Source: a virus (Duplodnaviria; Heunggongvirae; Uroviricota; Caudoviricetes). From it: 64,000 nucleotides of DNA. The position numbers and the translations under genes are program-made. This document shows positions 941 through 40,780 of this stretch, in pieces. Where the stretch lies: IMG/VR virus record IMGVR_UViG_3300028048_000107, positions 12,254-76,253 of that record. The stretch is one strand, 5' to 3'. How positions within the stretch are numbered: position 1 is the first letter of the stretch; each line of letters opens with the position of its first letter. The notes under the pieces were generated by a model. That model worked only from the letters and a program-made list of their open reading frames with translations. It did no database searches and was not told the origin of the DNA.

Positions 941-1268
941 TACTCACCCCATTACTGTCAGGAGTATAATTAGCCCAGTATCTGATAAACTTATAATCTT
1001 CGATATCTAACCCAAAATAATCTGGGGACTCTAATGCACTTCTAACACCATTTAAGCTTTCTTTATAATTAGTACAAGCTAATAGGTTAGAGTGCAACTT
1101 CATATGTTTATCATTAAGAATGTTTACTCTTTGCCAAAATGTTAGTTTATCATACTCTTTTTGTAGTTTTGCTTCATACTCTATAATATTTTCTTTAGCT
1201 TTTTGATAATTATCTTCGATATATTTTCTTTCAAAAATAGTTGCAGGTCTAGGATCTTTTCTATACAT
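921..1268 (-). CDS. hypothetical protein, tandem paralog family
   Basis: KLQKEYDKLTFWQRV...FIRYWANY motif shared with neighbours; overlapping stop/start. Confidence 0.4.
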   Translation of the reverse strand: MYRKDPRPATIFERKYIEDNYQKAKENIIEYEAKLQKEYDKLTFWQRVNILNDKHMKLHSNLLACTNYKESLNGVRSALESPDYFGLDIEDYKFIRYWANYTPDSNGVSSDDLPT

Positions 1269-7268: not shown

Positions 7269-7602
7269 TACGTTCCGTTAGATTTTTTATTATTTCTTTC
7301 TTAAAATCCTCAAAAGTAAGACCAAATCCTTTGTAAAGCATAATAATAACAAGAATCATATTTTCCACAGATTTTGAAGAAGGAAAGGTTGTGAACTCCT
7401 TATAGGCAAGTCTCAAATCATTGTCATCTAGCTCGTAAGAATATTCAAATAATTTAGGCACAGCTATATTAGGTAGCATATCATTATCGCCACTATACTC
7501 AGCTAAACACATGAATACATTAACTAAGATATTAGGTTCATGAGTTTGATAGTAATAATTTAAACCATTTTTAAGATATTGTATATATTCTATTTTTGTC
7601 AT
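7255..7602 (-). CDS. hypothetical protein
   Basis: 115-aa ORF. Confidence 0.4.
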   Translation of the reverse strand: MTKIEYIQYLKNGLNYYYQTHEPNILVNVFMCLAEYSGDNDMLPNIAVPKLFEYSYELDDNDLRLAYKEFTTFPSSKSVENMILVIIMLYKGFGLTFEDFKKEIIKNLTERIDNP

Positions 7603-15859: not shown

Positions 15860-15888
15860 AGTATAACATATTTTTAAGCCTTTGTCAA
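15860..15888 (-). promoter_or_regulatory. sigma-A-type promoter (TTGACA-N17-TGtTATACT)
   Basis: tgtcaa 15883..15888; agtata 15860..15865. Confidence 0.5.
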
Positions 15889-28769: not shown

Positions 28770-30140
28770 CACCACCTATAGAGGCGGGGAATTCCTGATT
28801 CATTGACTAATGCGCCAAAACCTTGGTTTCAGTGTCTTACATAATCTCCAAAGGCGTAGAGGTTATATTTAACCTCAGTTCCCATATGACCTATGGTACT
28901 ATTTGTTTCTCATGCTATATCTTTTGCTTTTGCTAAGATATTTATTGCCGCATTTCTATCTCTATCATGATGTGCTCCACATACAGGACATGTCCAATCT
29001 CGCACAAATAGATTCTTTACTAGTGGATTTTTATAGCCACATTCATGACAAGTTTGACTTGATGGGTAGAATGTAGGTATTTTTACTACTACACCACCAT
29101 GTTCTTTTGCTTTATACTCTAATTTAATAAAGAACTTACCCCATGCTACATCACTTATTGCTTTCGCTAACTTGTGATTCTTTAACATGCCTTTAATATT
29201 TAGCTTCTCAATAGCTATAAAAGCATTATCTTCTGCTAAGTGATAAGTTAATTTATGCTGAAAATCATCTCGTACATTCTTTATTTTTTCATAAATACGA
29301 GCAACTTTTATCCTTTGCTTTTCATATTGTGCTGAACCCTTTTTCTTACGAGCTAATTTTCTTTGAGCACGAGCCAATTTCTTTGCAAATTTAGCAAGTA
29401 TCTTTGGATTCTTTACTACATTACCATTAGTATCTGCATAAAAATCTTTTACTCCTACATCAATACCTATTTCATGTCCATTATTAGAAAGCAATTCTAT
29501 TTCATATTTTACACAAATAGACACATAATATTTATTTGATGCTGTACGAGTAACTGTTGCGCTTACAATTTTTCCTACCAATTCACGAGAAAGCTTGATT
29601 TTCACTCTCCCAATCTTTGGTAATTGAATTGTATTGCCTACAAGTTTAATATTACTACCTACACACTGACTTCTATATTTCTGACAATGTGCATGTTTAG
29701 ATTTAAATTTAGGATACTTAGATATCTTTTTAAAGAATCTATCATATGCTACTTGTAAATCTCGAAGGGAATTTTGAAGTGCCGTACTATCAACTTCATT
29801 AAGCCAGCTATACTCATCATACTTTTTAAGGTCTGTAAGCATAGCATTTGTAGCACTATAATTAACACTTTTATGATTGAATTTCCATTCATCTCTACGA
29901 ATTTGCAAGAAATGATTATAAATAAATCGCTTACAACCAAGAGTTTTATTTATCAATACCCTTTGCTCTTTTGTAGGATAAATTCTATATTTCATACCAC
30001 GAGTAATTTCTACTACCAAAATTCTCACCTCCTAATTATATTGTAACATATGTAAGAAGTAATTGCAAGTAATTCATCTCCCCCCTTCGCTTCGCTTAGA
30101 GGATGGAGGCTTCTTGCCACATTCTGTTAAATAAATTGTC
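28770..30140 (-). mobile_element. TnpB-only IS200/IS605-family element #1 (no tnpA); ends approximate
   Basis: ~200-nt GC-richer structured region 3' of tnpB (28770..28910) with end-hairpin motif ACCTatagAGGcGGGG (28774..28789), related to the hairpins flanking the other two tnpB genes. Confidence 0.35.
28910..30028 (-). CDS. tnpB: TnpB (IS200/IS605 OrfB family RuvC-like nuclease with zinc finger)
   Basis: MKYRIYPTKEQRVLINKTLGCKRFIYN N-terminus; C-terminal CHECGYKNP...CPVCGAHHDRDRNAAINIL ZF + RuvC-III; probable TTG/ATG start a few codons inside the track ORF. Confidence 0.8.
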   Translation of the reverse strand: MRILVVEITRGMKYRIYPTKEQRVLINKTLGCKRFIYNHFLQIRRDEWKFNHKSVNYSATNAMLTDLKKYDEYSWLNEVDSTALQNSLRDLQVAYDRFFKKISKYPKFKSKHAHCQKYRSQCVGSNIKLVGNTIQLPKIGRVKIKLSRELVGKIVSATVTRTASNKYYVSICVKYEIELLSNNGHEIGIDVGVKDFYADTNGNVVKNPKILAKFAKKLARAQRKLARKKKGSAQYEKQRIKVARIYEKIKNVRDDFQHKLTYHLAEDNAFIAIEKLNIKGMLKNHKLAKAISDVAWGKFFIKLEYKAKEHGGVVVKIPTFYPSSQTCHECGYKNPLVKNLFVRDWTCPVCGAHHDRDRNAAINILAKAKDIA

Positions 30141-36071: not shown

Positions 36072-37511
36072 TTAGGACAAGTTCCTTGCCCTTTTTGAAC
36101 GCAAATTAGCTAAAGAAAACTTACTTTGCTTTTCCTCAAATAATTTAGGTTCAATCATAGATATTCCAATATCTCTAATATTCAAAGATGCATTATAATC
36201 TCTATATAGATGTTTACCACAACCGCCACAATCATACTCCTTAATAGCTAAATTTTTAGTCAATGCGTTTATATAACCGCACTCATGGCATTTTTGTGTA
36301 GATTTTTCAAACCTATTTATCTTTACAAAAATCATGCCTTTATGTTTTAGTTTATACTCTAACATTAACCTAAACATACCAAATCCATTGTCTAACAAGT
36401 TTTTAGCTATTTTAAGTGTTTGCGACATTGCTCTTAAATCAATATCTTCTACAGAAACTAGTGCAAATTGCTTTGCTATCCTAAAGGAAAGTACATGTAG
36501 TGCATTCTTCCTTATATTAGCTATCTTCCTATGAAGTTTTTGAATTCTTTTAAGCAACTTTAGGTACGCATTGCTTTGTTTTTCCTTCTTCGCAAGTTTT
36601 TTCTGTAATGCTTTAAGCTTACATTCATTTTTGCGATATGTCTTTTGAAAGGATGCTAATATATTATCTAATAAGGTTTTATCCTTACTGCTAGGAACAC
36701 ATCCACCTTGTTGTGCATAATCTAATCCAAGACATAATTCTTTATGTTCATTCAAATAATCTTTGACTTTACATAAAGTTTCTTTATCATGTTTTAATGT
36801 AACATACTCTTTAGTATATATTACAGTTAAAGACACAGTATATCTATCTTGACCTATTCGCTTAATAACTGCTTTGGTTATTCTGTAATTTTCTGGTAGG
36901 TCACGATGATACCTTAGTTTTATTGGATTCTTTAACTTAGGTATTACAAGCGTCATATACCTACTACTTTCTCCAAGATACTCTTCTAACCTTACTGTAC
37001 CTTTTTGATTATTGGTAGTAAAAGATTGTTCAGAAAAGAATTTAGCTGAAAATTTAGGCATACCTTTTAAATCTCTAAAAGTAAGCTCTTTGCCTATAGT
37101 CTTAACTTGTTTAAGAGCTTTCTTTTTATATTGATTACCTTTAGACACAAATTCATCATTATATTTCTTAATAGAGTTTACAAAATCTAGCCTTACCGCT
37201 GATAAAGCTAATGAATCTACTGCTTTCATATAAGAAAACTTTTCTTTTATAAATTTAACTGTAGGTAAATTCTTTACAAATTCTTTAGGAATATAGCCAC
37301 GCTTAAAATTTATACTTTCAAGATAATCATATAACTGAGCAACAAATATATTATGTAATTGACGTTTACAACCGCAATTTTTATGGATATACTGACATTG
37401 CTCAGTAGTTGGGTATATTTCATAGACATACCCAGCAGTAAACTCTTTTTCTAATTTTTCCAAGAATCCCAATCTTAAAAACTTGTCTTGTAGATTATGC
37501 ACAACATTCAC
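36072..37511 (-). CDS. tnpB: TnpB (IS200/IS605 OrfB family), 479 aa
   Basis: N-terminal YVYEIYPTTEQCQYIHKNCGCKRQLHN; C-terminal KCHECGYINA...CGGCGKHLYRDYNASLNI ZF + RuvC-III; own promoter TTGACA-N17-TAAAAT at 37525..37553 and RBS AAAGGAGG. Confidence 0.75.
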   Translation of the reverse strand: MNVVHNLQDKFLRLGFLEKLEKEFTAGYVYEIYPTTEQCQYIHKNCGCKRQLHNIFVAQLYDYLESINFKRGYIPKEFVKNLPTVKFIKEKFSYMKAVDSLALSAVRLDFVNSIKKYNDEFVSKGNQYKKKALKQVKTIGKELTFRDLKGMPKFSAKFFSEQSFTTNNQKGTVRLEEYLGESSRYMTLVIPKLKNPIKLRYHRDLPENYRITKAVIKRIGQDRYTVSLTVIYTKEYVTLKHDKETLCKVKDYLNEHKELCLGLDYAQQGGCVPSSKDKTLLDNILASFQKTYRKNECKLKALQKKLAKKEKQSNAYLKLLKRIQKLHRKIANIRKNALHVLSFRIAKQFALVSVEDIDLRAMSQTLKIAKNLLDNGFGMFRLMLEYKLKHKGMIFVKINRFEKSTQKCHECGYINALTKNLAIKEYDCGGCGKHLYRDYNASLNIRDIGISMIEPKLFEEKQSKFSLANLRSKRARNLS

Positions 37512-37830: not shown

Positions 37831-37859
37831 AGTATAACATATTTTTGTCCCTTTGTCAA
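37831..37859 (-). promoter_or_regulatory. sigma-A-type promoter (TTGACA-N17-TATACT)
   Basis: tgtcaa 37854..37859, agtata 37831..37836 on plus strand; TGt extended -10. Confidence 0.5.
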
Positions 37860-37862
37860 GAA

Positions 37863-37890
37863 CAAAAAAGGCAGAAATTTATTTTCTGCC
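37863..37890 (-). terminator. intrinsic terminator immediately upstream of promoter
   Basis: GGCAGAAAtttatTTTCTGCC hairpin with a 7-nt T-run on the minus strand. Confidence 0.55.
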
Positions 37891-37893
37891 TTA

Positions 37894-38127
37894 AATTCCT
37901 TTACCTAATTTTTCTAATAATTTATTAAGATATTCTACTAAGTTACTTCTCAAAAAGTATAACCCGCCGATCATTGCAGTCATAGAAGCCCATTTACCTA
38001 AATCTTCCAATGAACCTAATGGGTCTAGTTTACTTCTTTCCTTTACATACCAATGTATAGATGCTGTTAACTGTTGTCCTAAAGTATATGTTAGGTTACT
38101 TGCTTGTTGTTGTACTACCTGAAACTC
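37894..38127 (-). CDS. 3' exon of IStron-interrupted gene (C-terminal ~77 codons, no start codon of its own)
   Basis: Minus-strand frame open for 77 codons from the element's right end (GEFQVVQQQASNLTYTLGQQ...LYFLRSNLVEYLNKLLEKLGKGI*); such a stop-free stretch is improbable by chance in AT-rich DNA. Confidence 0.4.
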
Positions 38128-38289
38128 CCCATAGCTGAAGCTAGAGGGTTCTTAGGTACTTGATAGCCTTTTCTTACTCTCGAAAGATACAAGTATCAAC
38201 TATCTTCCCTAAAACTTTTACAGACAAGTGCTCCACTGAACGCATTAGCGTCTGCATAAGGCCCGTTTCAAGACCTTTAATATTTTATG
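38127..38289 (-). ncRNA. candidate omega-RNA scaffold / IStron 3' region (tnpB stop to right-end hairpin)
   Basis: ~160-nt GC-richer segment (GAAACGGGCCUUAUGCAGACGCUAAUGCGUUCAGUGGAGCAC...) between tnpB stop and the right-end hairpin; by analogy to TnpB systems the guide would be the ~16-20 nt just beyond 38126. Confidence 0.3.
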
Positions 38290-39777
38290 TTAAATTCCTA
38301 CACTACTTAATAACTTTTTACCACTATCCTTAATAGAAACTAATCTTTCTATTTCTTTATTATGTAACTCTAAAAAGTTATTATATCTTTCATTACACTT
38401 TTCTAAATTAAAACTTGATAAATCTTCATTAACATTCATTATAAGAAATGCTGAATATAAATCACGTTGGACTTTGTTTCCTTCTATATTGTTCCAACGC
38501 TCATTTCGCTCCTTCTTCTTATATTCTCCAGTAACATGATTATATTGAGATGCTTTCGCTTCTCTTGTATTTATCTTTATCAACTCTTTCCCAAAATAAT
38601 GAAGCTTCCTATCTAAAATCTCTAAAAACATTGCTGGTGCTCTGTTTGCTATGGATTTTCCATAACGCTTCCTACTTAGATTCTTACCCTTCTTACTCTT
38701 CTTGGCTTCTTTTGCTTTCTTTGCTAAAGCCTTAAAATCCATATCTTCTACATAAAAGGTATCTCCTAAAGTAAGTAGATGGTTTGTAAGAAGTTCATGC
38801 TGATATTTTCTCAATACTCTCTGTTTTCTGTAAAGCTCTTTAAGCTTAAAGAGTATCTTCATATAATGATTACTTCTTACCCAATATTTTGCACCTTTCT
38901 TACAAGTTCCGTTAGCATTAAAATTATTTGGGTTAGTTGCTCTACGACTACGATCAAGCTTTCTTTGAAGTAAAAGTCTTTCTCTTTCATACCCTTGGGC
39001 TTTATCTGCAAGCTCTTTTAATGACACTTCAGTTTCAGAAGAATAGGCTATTGTAGATGTACCAATATCTATTCCTACATCCCCTTTACCTAACTTCTGA
39101 GTGAATTTACCATCAGATTTTCTTCTCTTTGCTGGACGTAAACCTTTAAATACTATCTGTAAATAATATTTACGTTTTCCTCTTATATATTTTCTGATTA
39201 CTCTGCAATAAGCAATTTCCATTGCTAAAGCTTCCACTTCATAAGAATTTTTCTCATCTATAATTACAGGAAAATTCAACCCTCCCCAAACACACATATT
39301 TTTATCTGACTTATACATAATAGCATTTTTATTATTCTTTCCTTCTAAAGACTCTACACTACCAAATTTCTTGAAGTGTATTTCTTCACCATCCTTATAA
39401 AAATACCTTACGTATGCGTCCCATACTCTATTAGCTATTGCTATAGCTATATGTGTGTTTACATGATTCTTAAAATGATATCTTAAAGATGTCATCATTC
39501 CTTGTAATCCATGTTTACTTAATCCAGTCTTTTCTCGTAAATCGTTGATTTGCCTATAAATTTCTTTATCATGTTCTGATTTATCATGCTTTAATTCTTT
39601 CATTAGGCTTCGATACTGCTTAGTCTTTTCAAGTTCTCGTAAAACTTTTAAACTCTTGTTTACCAAGGCATTATAAAGCTTTCGACCAGCTTCTATCCGC
39701 TTGTCGATAATATCTTCTTGCCACGATTCTGTTTTTAGTTTAAGTGTTAGTACAAATCTTGGTTCGTCTTTTGCCAT
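38290..39777 (-). CDS. tnpB: TnpB-like RuvC nuclease lacking the zinc finger (divergent IS200/IS605 OrfB)
   Basis: RuvC-I GIDIGTSTIA, RuvC-II YVEDMDF, RuvC-III QRDLYSAFLIMN; N-terminus RFVLTLKLKTESWQEDIIDKR...RKLYNAL parallels TnpB RLYPTxEQ...RxVYN; no Cys between RuvC-II and III. Promoter TTGACA-N17-TATAAT at 39800..39828, RBS AAGGAGG. Confidence 0.7.
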   Translation of the reverse strand: MAKDEPRFVLTLKLKTESWQEDIIDKRIEAGRKLYNALVNKSLKVLRELEKTKQYRSLMKELKHDKSEHDKEIYRQINDLREKTGLSKHGLQGMMTSLRYHFKNHVNTHIAIAIANRVWDAYVRYFYKDGEEIHFKKFGSVESLEGKNNKNAIMYKSDKNMCVWGGLNFPVIIDEKNSYEVEALAMEIAYCRVIRKYIRGKRKYYLQIVFKGLRPAKRRKSDGKFTQKLGKGDVGIDIGTSTIAYSSETEVSLKELADKAQGYERERLLLQRKLDRSRRATNPNNFNANGTCKKGAKYWVRSNHYMKILFKLKELYRKQRVLRKYQHELLTNHLLTLGDTFYVEDMDFKALAKKAKEAKKSKKGKNLSRKRYGKSIANRAPAMFLEILDRKLHYFGKELIKINTREAKASQYNHVTGEYKKKERNERWNNIEGNKVQRDLYSAFLIMNVNEDLSSFNLEKCNERYNNFLELHNKEIERLVSIKDSGKKLLSSVGI

Positions 39778-39799
39778 ATATCTCAGCCTCCTTGACTAT

Positions 39800-39828
39800 A
39801 TTATAGACCATAAAGGTCAAAATGTCAA
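39800..39828 (-). promoter_or_regulatory. sigma-A-type promoter for tnpB #3 inside the IStron
   Basis: tgtcaa 39823..39828; tataat (RC) ~39800..39805; 17-nt spacer. Confidence 0.5.
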
Positions 39829-39839
39829 GGGAAATTTTC

Positions 39840-40305
39840 ATAAAATATTAATTTTTTTAGAACCCTCTAACTTCGCGATTTGAGAGTTTGTCGTTCCCAC
39901 GGAAACGCTACCTTCCATGACGTTCTCTTATGAACTGCTTGACATTTCTGCCAAGCACAGACTATATCTTATCCATGTTACAAAATTAAATTTGTAATTT
40001 AGGTCTTATTTACTTCCCTAGTGCTTACTAGGTACTGCCCTCGTGAGGCATAGTCGTTGATCCTTTTTATTGGATGCTGATTGTCTATTTTCTACGATTA
40101 ATGTTTAGGATTTAACCTTGCATTATCCAAATCATTGTTTTTACTTTCATAACCTATTTATAGGTTGATTTGGCTTTAAGAGTTTCCAGCTATTCTAATA
40201 CTGCACTGCTTAACTTTCTCTTAAGTTAAGACTACATACAAGTTTCCCTATATGCTGATTGATTGTATTATGCTCCTATCCCCATAGCTGAAGCTAGGGG
40301 ATTGC
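39840..40305 (-). ncRNA. group I intron ribozyme core of the IStron (5' part of element)
   Basis: Minus strand: R element GAUCAACGACUAUGCC (plus 40051..40060 tagtcgttga) and S element GGAUAAGAUAUAGUCUG (plus 39959..39970 agactatatctt) ~80 nt apart; nearly identical to the R/S of nrdD intron 1; ~480 nt without any ORF. Confidence 0.55.
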
Positions 40306-40780
40306 GGAGCATGTTTAATCGGTCATGTACTCCATTTTTTAATGCTGTATTTATTACATCTTTTTGTGCATCTATATTTTTCTCTAATTCTTTATACCAT
40401 TGTTTTGCCTCATCTATATTTTTTGGCTCTACAAATGCATAAGAATTTACAATAGCTTTTGTAGTATCTGCTATTACTGTATTTACAGTTTCTTTTACTA
40501 TCTCTTTTGGTTTTTCTTTATTTTCTGTTGATAGCATTACTACTTCTTTACTTATTATTTGATCTATATCCACTACTTTTAATACAAAAGATTGTGTAGA
40601 AAAATCTTTCTTAGTTATAGTTACTGGTAATACTCCTACTTCTATTCCGCTTATTGAAGTATTTCCTAAATTATCAGTTGTTCTTTCTATTAAACCTTTT
40701 CCTTCTAAATTAAATACTACTGAAGCTTCTTTAACTGGCTCTCCTGTTAAATCTTTTGTTTGTATTTTAATTTGTGCCAT
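40306..40780 (-). CDS. 5' exon of IStron-interrupted gene
   Basis: Track ORF 40268..40780 reads through the element's left hairpin and stops 12 codons later; the real gene probably continues in 37894..38127 after splicing. Confidence 0.4.

Follow-up and report, generated by a model that had tools for sequence, protein, structure and literature searches.

Organisation of the locus

We analysed a 64,000-nucleotide stretch of a Caudoviricetes genome (positions 12,254 to 76,253 of the IMG/VR virus record IMGVR_UViG_3300028048_000107), referred to here as the window, in which a phage gene of the structural region is split by a 2,203-bp IStron. The element carries a group I intron and a gene for a TnpB-family protein that lacks the C4 zinc finger, followed by a predicted omegaRNA at its right end. 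The features of the element and of the interrupted gene are given below in window positions, in the order in which they are read.

40322..40780, minus strand: exon 1 of the split phage gene, delimited by uninterrupted 228-amino-acid homologs and empty-site DNA
40322..40325, minus strand: TGAC, the left-flank target, predicted target-adjacent motif (TAM) and last four exon bases in P1; 7/7 insertions
38119..40321, minus strand: whole IStron, comprising left end, group I intron, promoter, tnpB-like open reading frame (ORF), omegaRNA and right end
40262..40321, minus strand: left end, with subterminal hairpin CCCCTAGCttcaGCTATGGGG (40300..40280) within the stem AUGCUCC/GGAGCAU
40255..40264, minus strand: predicted internal guide sequence (IGS) AAUCAAUCAG, from the minimum free energy (MFE) fold; invariant in all IStron copies
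39891..40261, minus strand: group I intron core with P/Q/R/S elements, ending at GAACGA (39896..39891), after which the insertion sequence (IS) module begins
39859..39869, minus strand: 5′ arm TAGAGGGTTCT of a long-range inverted repeat around the ORF, complementary to 38152..38142
39800..39828, minus strand: promoter-like TTGACA-17-TATAAT (12/12 matches), just upstream of the tnpB-like ORF
38290..39777, minus strand: TnpB-family protein of 495 amino acids without the C4 zinc finger; catalytic candidates D237, E344 and D439
38119..38276, minus strand: conserved structured RNA, the predicted omegaRNA scaffold (158 nt; five stem regions and a pseudoknot), coinciding with the right end
38265..38270, minus strand: pseudoknot 5′ half, the first hairpin loop UGAAAC, pairing with 38125..38120
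38142..38152, minus strand: 3′ arm AGAACCCTCTA of the long-range inverted repeat, overlapping omegaRNA stem 4 and the terminal hairpin
38127..38148, minus strand: right-end subterminal hairpin CCCTCTAGCttcaGCTATGGGG, also the last omegaRNA stem; covaries across the family (helix 8)
38120..38125, minus strand: pseudoknot 3′ half, the tail GUUUCA, pairing with the first hairpin loop
38099..38118, minus strand: predicted guide or its DNA match GTAGTACAACAACAAGCAAG, the first 20 nt of exon 2 from the right-end boundary
37891..38118, minus strand: exon 2 of the host gene, without a start codon of its own; stop codon TAA at 37893..37891

Boundaries of the element and the interrupted gene

The ORF called for exon 1 (170 amino acids, 40780..40268) runs into the element and stops at 40268. 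Uninterrupted homologs of 228 amino acids and up to 95 % identity read NGVH-D-VVQQQ across the junction, which in the IStron-free alleles has the form ...CATGAY|GTAGT... and in the empty-site DNA of locus L088 the form ...GGAGTACATGAT|GTAGTTCAACAACAGG.... Joining the flanks at the element boundaries restores the host reading frame, the joined exons match the empty allele L088, and no target duplication is present in the flanks at the insertion sites or at the empty site. A left boundary at 40324 (T|GACC), as conservation and reading frame alone would give, was excluded by the additional residue D and by the empty-site DNA, which place it at 40321. Exon 1 ends in GAC at 40322, since the homologs carry D at the junction and L088 provides the empty-site DNA.

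Three close homologs of the element (82-92 % identity) sit in other phage genes. Identity between the downstream DNA of the close loci stops sharply at ...GGGGAGTTTCAG| on the right and on the left begins near GACCGATTAAAC; the same ends are common to four close loci and to three at ~60 % identity, each in a different gene. The terminus ...GAGTTTCAG at 38119 is supported by four insertion sites, by the empty site and by ~60 family loci, in which the right end reads GAG-N-N-TCAG and is followed by unrelated sequence, i.e. a 3′ terminus TCAG with a variable 3′ flank. The initial annotation had taken the hairpin at 38148..38127 as the right-end hairpin and as the end of the element. A near-copy of it at the left end (40300..40280) upholds the first assignment, while the element itself ends 8 nt later, at 38119. 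Its reading of the element as an IStron agrees with the shared ends, the uninterrupted homologs, the empty site and a match to the group I intron model RF00028 described below.

On the left, TGAC adjoins the element in seven of seven independent insertions (the window, L001, L003, L007, L090, L091 and L092). Extended by one base the flank is (A/G/C)TGAC in all seven copies, with C as the last exon base. In TnpA-bearing relatives, as in IS608, this position is taken by TTAC. TGAC would also be the TAM of the window element. The stem enclosing the left-end hairpin covaries between copies (CGCGGC/GCCGCG in L090, CGCGCC/GGCGCG in L092), and the intron-less relative L007 has the same 58 nt of left end. 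DNA-pattern scans of IMG/VR and a metagenome collection for additional left-end copies returned only the L007-type intron-less element, and a phage megablast gave no match. Covariation of the guide tetranucleotides beside the hairpins with TTAC or TGAC was considered and not used, there being two classes only and an uncertain register. The L091 copy has lost its left-end hairpin (~965..1005) and keeps the TGAC flank, intron, ORF and right end; this copy is probably no longer a substrate of TnpA.

A TnpB-family protein without a zinc finger

The three RuvC motifs reported in the initial annotation are present in the 495-amino-acid protein, GIDIGTSTIA carrying D237, YVEDMDF carrying E344 and QRDLYSAF carrying D439, and the segment between E344 and D439 contains no cysteine, as it had also stated. 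We compared 139 distinct homologs from phage and bacterial loci, with 37-100 % identity; D237, E344 and D439 are invariant in this set and CxxC is absent between RuvC-II and RuvC-III throughout. In alignments, the canonical TnpB pattern SQxCxxCG...CxxC...DRD is replaced in this family by SQ(F/Y)NH...RWN..G..QRD, and the positions of the zinc-binding cysteines are read as N413, T416, N429 and E432 in the window protein, all polar replacements. The two other TnpB genes of the window, at 36072..37511 (479 amino acids) and 28910..30028 (372 amino acids) on the minus strand, have OrfB_IS605, HTH and the zinc-ribbon TNB domain by Pfam, as expected from their earlier description as finger-bearing; no group I intron was detected beside either of these canonical genes.

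The NCBIfam model guided_TnpB (NF040570) aligns to residues 11-448 with E = 4e-20 and 72 bits, below its cut-off, PHROG_506 'transposase' matches with E = 2e-42, and relatives of the protein have sub-threshold matches to OrfB_IS605 and HTH_OrfB. A profile search of PDB sequences reached E = 0.047 at best. The AlphaFold2 model (pLDDT 86, pTM 0.73) gave as its best Foldseek matches in the PDB ISFba1 TnpB and ISDra2 TnpB (8iaz, 8h1j, 8exa), followed by Cas12p, Fanzor2, TranC, Cas12m and Cas12f, the best matches overall having E-values of 1e-11 to 1e-8 at 9-15 % identity. The comparison with the TnpB, Fanzor and Cas12 families that had been proposed for this protein thereby ranks TnpB first, ahead of Fanzor2 and Cas12, by structure, and by hidden Markov model gives guided_TnpB below its curated cut-off. 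The predicted fold is the WED-REC-RuvC arrangement of TnpB and Cas12, in a protein ~100 amino acids longer than canonical TnpB with an enlarged helical N-terminal half. The model matches to guided_TnpB and PHROG_506, the fold and the Y1 TnpA genes beside relatives all bear out the TnpB-like assignment: the protein is a bona fide member of the IS200/IS605 TnpB lineage that has lost its zinc finger, and, judging by the aligned homologs, the loss is family-wide.

The promoter-like site upstream of the ORF is conserved in L001 and L003. The 3′ end of the ORF itself contains a second promoter-like site (38407..38380, minus strand, 10/12 matches), from which, ~100 nt before the omegaRNA scaffold, a separate omegaRNA transcript could start.

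A conserved structured RNA at the right end

Using nhmmer we found the 158-nt region 38276..38119 downstream of ~60 homologs, most of them intron-less, and derived a consensus from an alignment (A5) of 35 homologous loci. Compensatory changes occur in 33 of its 43 pairs; 94.4 % of cells are paired (~41 %, range 32-44 %, in slid controls), the covariation score is 0.56 (~0.1 in slid controls), and none of 500 shuffles reached any of these pairing or covariation measures. Several G.U pairs are invariant. The pseudoknot between the first hairpin loop and the 3′ tail is paired in 99 % of cells, with a middle position that varies between AU (13), CG (11) and UA (11). Folding of the window's 3′ region by itself is not significant (MFE z = -1.68), and the case for this RNA is therefore built on covariation. 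The ~160 nt after the stop codon, described as structured in the initial annotation, are accordingly weakly so when taken singly and strongly so across the 35 loci.

The omegaRNAs of IS605 and IS607 TnpBs are described by Zedaveinyte et al. (10.1101/2023.11.20.567912) as stem-loops in the tnpB 3′ UTR with a nexus-to-3′-end pseudoknot that abuts the guide. The right-end RNA matches this architecture, and its prediction as an omegaRNA scaffold is well supported by the comparative evidence. The element closes with G at 38119, which is also predicted to be the 3′ splice-site G; GUUUCAG is therefore scaffold, made up of the pseudoknot tail and this G. With the element ending at 38119 a guide would start at 38118 (GUAGUACAACAACAAG...), which replaces the guide placed earlier at 38107..38126 (GUUUCAGGUAG...). 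A strong terminator-like hairpin lies directly after the exon 2 stop codon (37868..37892), so that read-through from the IStron would end ~230 nt past the right end.

The group I intron and its predicted splice sites

When the query was limited to 481 nt, Rfam RF00028 aligned in its full length to 40261..39938 (28.4 bits, E = 2.2e-5), the P, Q, R and S elements falling in their expected places; searches of the whole window at the gathering threshold and of 2.7 kb at an E-value threshold did not find the intron. The 5′ region folds well below shuffled sequences (z = -6.2), its P7/S element matches many phage introns by BLAST, and a profile of the window intron scores 245 bits on an IStron of Clostridioides phage ES-S-0173-01 (L093). 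All IStrons carry their IS module after GAACGA (Tourasse 2014, PMC4227781).

In the MFE fold, AUCA of the predicted IGS would pair with UGAC of the exon, A lying opposite C(-1), and AAUC with GAUU of the intron. The CdISt1-like element L093 (2820..2885) has GUCAG opposite exon UUGAU. Group I introns normally need U as the last exon base, the resulting U.G wobble being near-universal and a non-U 5′ splice site rare; a C.A pair can partly substitute for U.G, as known from Tetrahymena.

Every copy in the clade of the window IStron has C as the last exon base with a predicted IGS A opposite, where the CdISt1-like element has U opposite G. The change at the splice site looks like a paired switch from U.G to C.A tied to the TGAC target.

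The 11-nt inverted repeat 39869..39859 / 38152..38142 is present in all IStron copies with 0-2 mismatches, and group A IStrons have a 6-10 bp stem of this kind around the ORF (PMC4227781). Paired, the two arms would seal the ORF within the intron structure. Since the 3′ arm overlaps omegaRNA helices, the intron fold and the omegaRNA fold would exclude each other.

Among 174 loci the intron occurs only with the sub-branch at least 59 % identical to the window protein, copies of which interrupt a UvrD-like and a cyclase gene in Mitsuokella; L007 (58 % identical) has the same left end and TGAC flank without an intron. We conclude that one branch of the finger-less family acquired an intron of the CdISt1 lineage. 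This agrees with the view of Zedaveinyte et al. (10.1101/2023.11.20.567912) that numerous tnpB clades became intron-associated independently. The fetched locus L002 ends in a further segment similar to the 5′ part of the intron (7306..7511, 50 bits), ~5.6 kb downstream from its IStron copy.

Distribution of the family and mobility

A word-indexed search gave at least 2,872 relatives of the window protein, none with Pfam domains and the few named ones being 'hypothetical'. An exhaustive phmmer search of 1.84 billion cluster representatives returned 734 matches at E ≤ 1e-30 and 2,557 at E ≤ 1e-3; the family thus counts 734 clusters at 50 % identity, most of them labelled hypothetical. In species-representative genomes it occupies at least 576 loci, nearly all in Bacillota, with Fusobacterium in addition. 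Phage c-st (ISCbt1, CST008), Geobacillus virus E3 and phiCD211 encode relatives at 43-48 % identity that are annotated as OrfB or transposase, and in each case an IS200-type Y1 transposase gene immediately precedes the gene. A full-length Y1 tnpA is immediately upstream in ~30 of 86 fetched related loci, and fragments are found in several more. Subterminal hairpins at both ends, the absence of target duplication and Y1 TnpA beside relatives are the hallmarks of IS200/IS605 elements, and the window IStron is a non-autonomous element of this type whose mobility and excision depend on a transposase supplied in trans.

Proposed mechanism and alternative explanations

We consider it probable that these parts work together, as an IStron with its own promoter, intron, finger-less TnpB and omegaRNA that is inserted in a phage gene and kept there by TnpB-guided retention. 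This interpretation starts from the boundaries, intron homology, TnpB fold, finger loss, conservation and covariation of the RNA and invariant TGAC flank described above, and supposes that the RNA is transcribed and processed, that the intron splices and that the protein is a nuclease. The group I intron would splice the whole 2.2-kb element from the host mRNA, with the 5′ site after TGAC and the 3′ site after the G of ...UCAG, restoring the 228-amino-acid host protein. The sigma-70-like promoter (39828..39800) would drive tnpB and read through the right end into exon 2, adding the guide to the scaffold, to which the TnpB-family protein would bind. The complex would then cut DNA in which TGAC precedes a match to the guide, an arrangement found only where the element is absent: either the junction that forms when a Y1 TnpA acting in trans excises the element, or a co-infecting genome with an identical IStron-free allele. 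Repair by recombination with an occupied copy would restore the element. Cleavage at the right end of the element itself would be avoided, since the guide-matching DNA there follows TCAG and not TGAC. The pairing of 10-11 bp between the intron side and the right end would make splicing and guide-RNA formation compete, a conflict demonstrated experimentally for CboIStron (Zedaveinyte et al., 10.1101/2023.11.20.567912). The cleavage steps are modelled by analogy on work with ISDra2, GstIS/IS605 and CboIStron.

Several observations weigh against this interpretation. The RF00028 score is below the gathering score of 50 and was seen only with the short query, and splicing efficiency is uncertain because the last exon base is C instead of the usual U. 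No Pfam model, PF07282 included, matched the window protein, and its guided_TnpB score is under the curated cut-off of 100 bits; what the finger does in canonical TnpB is not clear, and a protein without it could be impaired in cleavage. No tnpA was found within the 64,000-nt window. Finally, IStron-free alleles of the host gene do exist (86-95 % identical), as the initial annotation had predicted, yet the guide match that it expected in them is imperfect: the seven that we read (L088 and L174-L179, three distinct sequences) have TGAT or TGAA, none of them TGAC, and each departs from the guide by 1-2 synonymous changes within its first 16 nt. These differences make cleavage of the seven alleles doubtful. 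They may reflect escape from the TAM or plain divergence, between which a sample of this size cannot tell.

The same alleles bear on the possibility that the element acts mainly phage against phage, the nuclease cutting IStron-free alleles in co-infecting phages in a non-restorative homing or exclusion, instead of promoting re-insertion after excision. Homing or exclusion of competitor phages might be expected from an element that sits in a phage gene and has close copies in other phage structural genes while IStron-free alleles of 86-95 % identity circulate; excision may moreover be rare, there being no tnpA in the window, and the concept of phage competition is discussed in PMC13565253. We nevertheless regard this as unlikely to be the main role, given that none of the seven free alleles offers TGAC or a perfect guide match (a small sample, in which the divergence is similar to that of neighbouring sequence) and that the same IStron clade also occurs in bacterial chromosomes, e.g. 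in Mitsuokella. A wider version would have a finger-less TnpB separately co-opt an IA2 intron, TGAC serve at once as transposase target, TAM and part of the 5′ splice-site helix and so force C.A, the element engage in RNA-guided homing or exclusion, and the TGAT and TGAA alleles be TAM-escape variants; taken as a whole we find this combination rather improbable.

Decidedly less likely still is that the window protein binds RNA without cutting DNA and either binds or represses DNA under RNA guidance or regulates splicing or transposition, like TldR and the Cas12m/Cas12k-type derivatives. The finger, which most TnpBs have and this whole family lacks, would then mark a change of function in a protein that is ~100 amino acids longer and enlarged in its helical N-terminal half, and modulation of splicing by TnpB-omegaRNA binding has a precedent in CboIStron (Zedaveinyte et al.). 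The invariance of D237, E344 and D439 in 139 sequences is, however, unlike the pattern of inactivated derivatives, and the finger-less family is still mobile, as its many insertion sites, TnpA partners, conserved ends and TAM-like flanks attest. Cas12a and other active relatives have no C4 finger either. That the 3′ structure is no guide RNA at all, being only a right end that acts as DNA and is recognised by TnpA in single-stranded form, or a 3′ domain of the intron, is highly improbable: although the terminal hairpin resembles the left-end hairpin as TnpA binding sites would, and the right end pairs with the intron-side repeat, a subterminal hairpin and cleavage site suffice for TnpA and yet four further helices and a pseudoknot covary, with invariant G.U pairs that fit an RNA of the tnpB sense strand, and the structure is also present in intron-less relatives.

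Should the retention mechanism preferred here involve an active nuclease, the C4 finger would be dispensable for a transposon-borne TnpB with an intact DED triad, and the finger-less family offers a ready omegaRNA model and a predicted TAM. The joining of one IA2 intron lineage to two unrelated TnpB lineages supports the published view of repeated ribozyme co-option. If the predictions hold, TnpA target, TAM and P1 share the constraint on TGAC, and this seems to have driven a group I intron towards a non-U 5′ splice site. For annotation, the finger-less family is missed by both Pfam and PGAP.

Other features of the window

A repeat family (D6) with a 42-nt motif has four copies, at 15860, 22963, 33154 and 37831. 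The motif has the form of a TTGACA...TATACT promoter on the minus strand, with 11/12 matches and TG in the copy at 37859..37831, and is probably a family of phage promoters. Between 46100 and 53600 diverged direct repeats of 45-, 104- and 122-nt families lie in several large minus-strand ORFs, where they probably represent repeated protein domains of tail or fibre-like genes.

Comparison with known systems

The window element shares most of its organisation with the group A IStrons (CdISt1, Clostridioides difficile; PMC4227781). Their 5′ end holds an IA2-type group I intron, and they have an IS200/IS605 module after GAACGA, an inverted-repeat stem around the ORF, a 3′ terminus TCAG, no target duplication, boundaries that are the splice junctions (a prediction for the window element) and an omegaRNA in the tnpB 3′ UTR. 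The intron of L093 from phage ES-S-0173-01, which we call CdISt1-like because it is inserted after TTGAT and has a canonical zinc-finger TnpB of 369 amino acids, is homologous to the window intron. The TnpB proteins are of different lineages, the window protein having 495 amino acids, no finger, no Pfam domain and a BLASTP E-value of only 0.002 against the 369-amino-acid TnpB; by this comparison with L093 it departs from the ISBth17-like canonical TnpB type that is a trait of group A ORF B. The flank also differs, being TGAC with last exon base C in place of TTGAT, ATTAT or TTTAT with last base U, as do the left- and right-end hairpins.

ISCbt1 of Clostridium phage c-st (CST007/CST008) and the elements of Geobacillus virus E3 and phiCD211 encode OrfB proteins of the same finger-less family (43-48 % identity), and their right ends are also of the same type and hold a conserved structured RNA that terminates in GAGNNTCAG; all are phage-borne like the window element, from which they differ in carrying Y1 tnpA, lacking an intron and having TTAC as left flank. 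With the TnpBs of ISDra2 and ISFba1 (8h1j, 8exa, 8iaz) the window protein shares the overall fold (Foldseek E ~1e-11) and the RuvC D-E-D residues at 14-15 % identity; its TNB region has no C4 finger, and its helical REC is enlarged. In those systems the guide RNA comes from the right end, a pseudoknot lies next to the guide and the TAM is the left-end transposase target, all of which is predicted for the window element too, its TAM being TGAC where theirs is TTGAT.

CboIStron (IS607, group B; Zedaveinyte et al.) is an IStron that likewise encodes TnpB and an omegaRNA, and its splicing competes with formation of the guide RNA; unlike the window element it has a serine-recombinase TnpA, a TGGG TAM, a CGG end and no subterminal hairpins. 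A group B reading of the window element, suggested by ATGGGG at both ends, was rejected, as these runs belong to the hairpins, there is no GG core, the ends are TGAC| and TCAG|, and relatives have Y1 TnpA. The RIIIr-4 clade of TnpB (Altae-Tran et al. 2023, PMC10691335) is also large, without a C4 finger and well represented in viruses. In RIIIr-4 the RuvC-III Asp is replaced by His and linkage to an RHH/MazE-like gene is frequent, whereas the window family keeps Asp (QRD), and the presence of D439 in 139/139 sequences rules out membership. The window element is thus a variation within the known IStron/TnpB framework, and no new kind of system.

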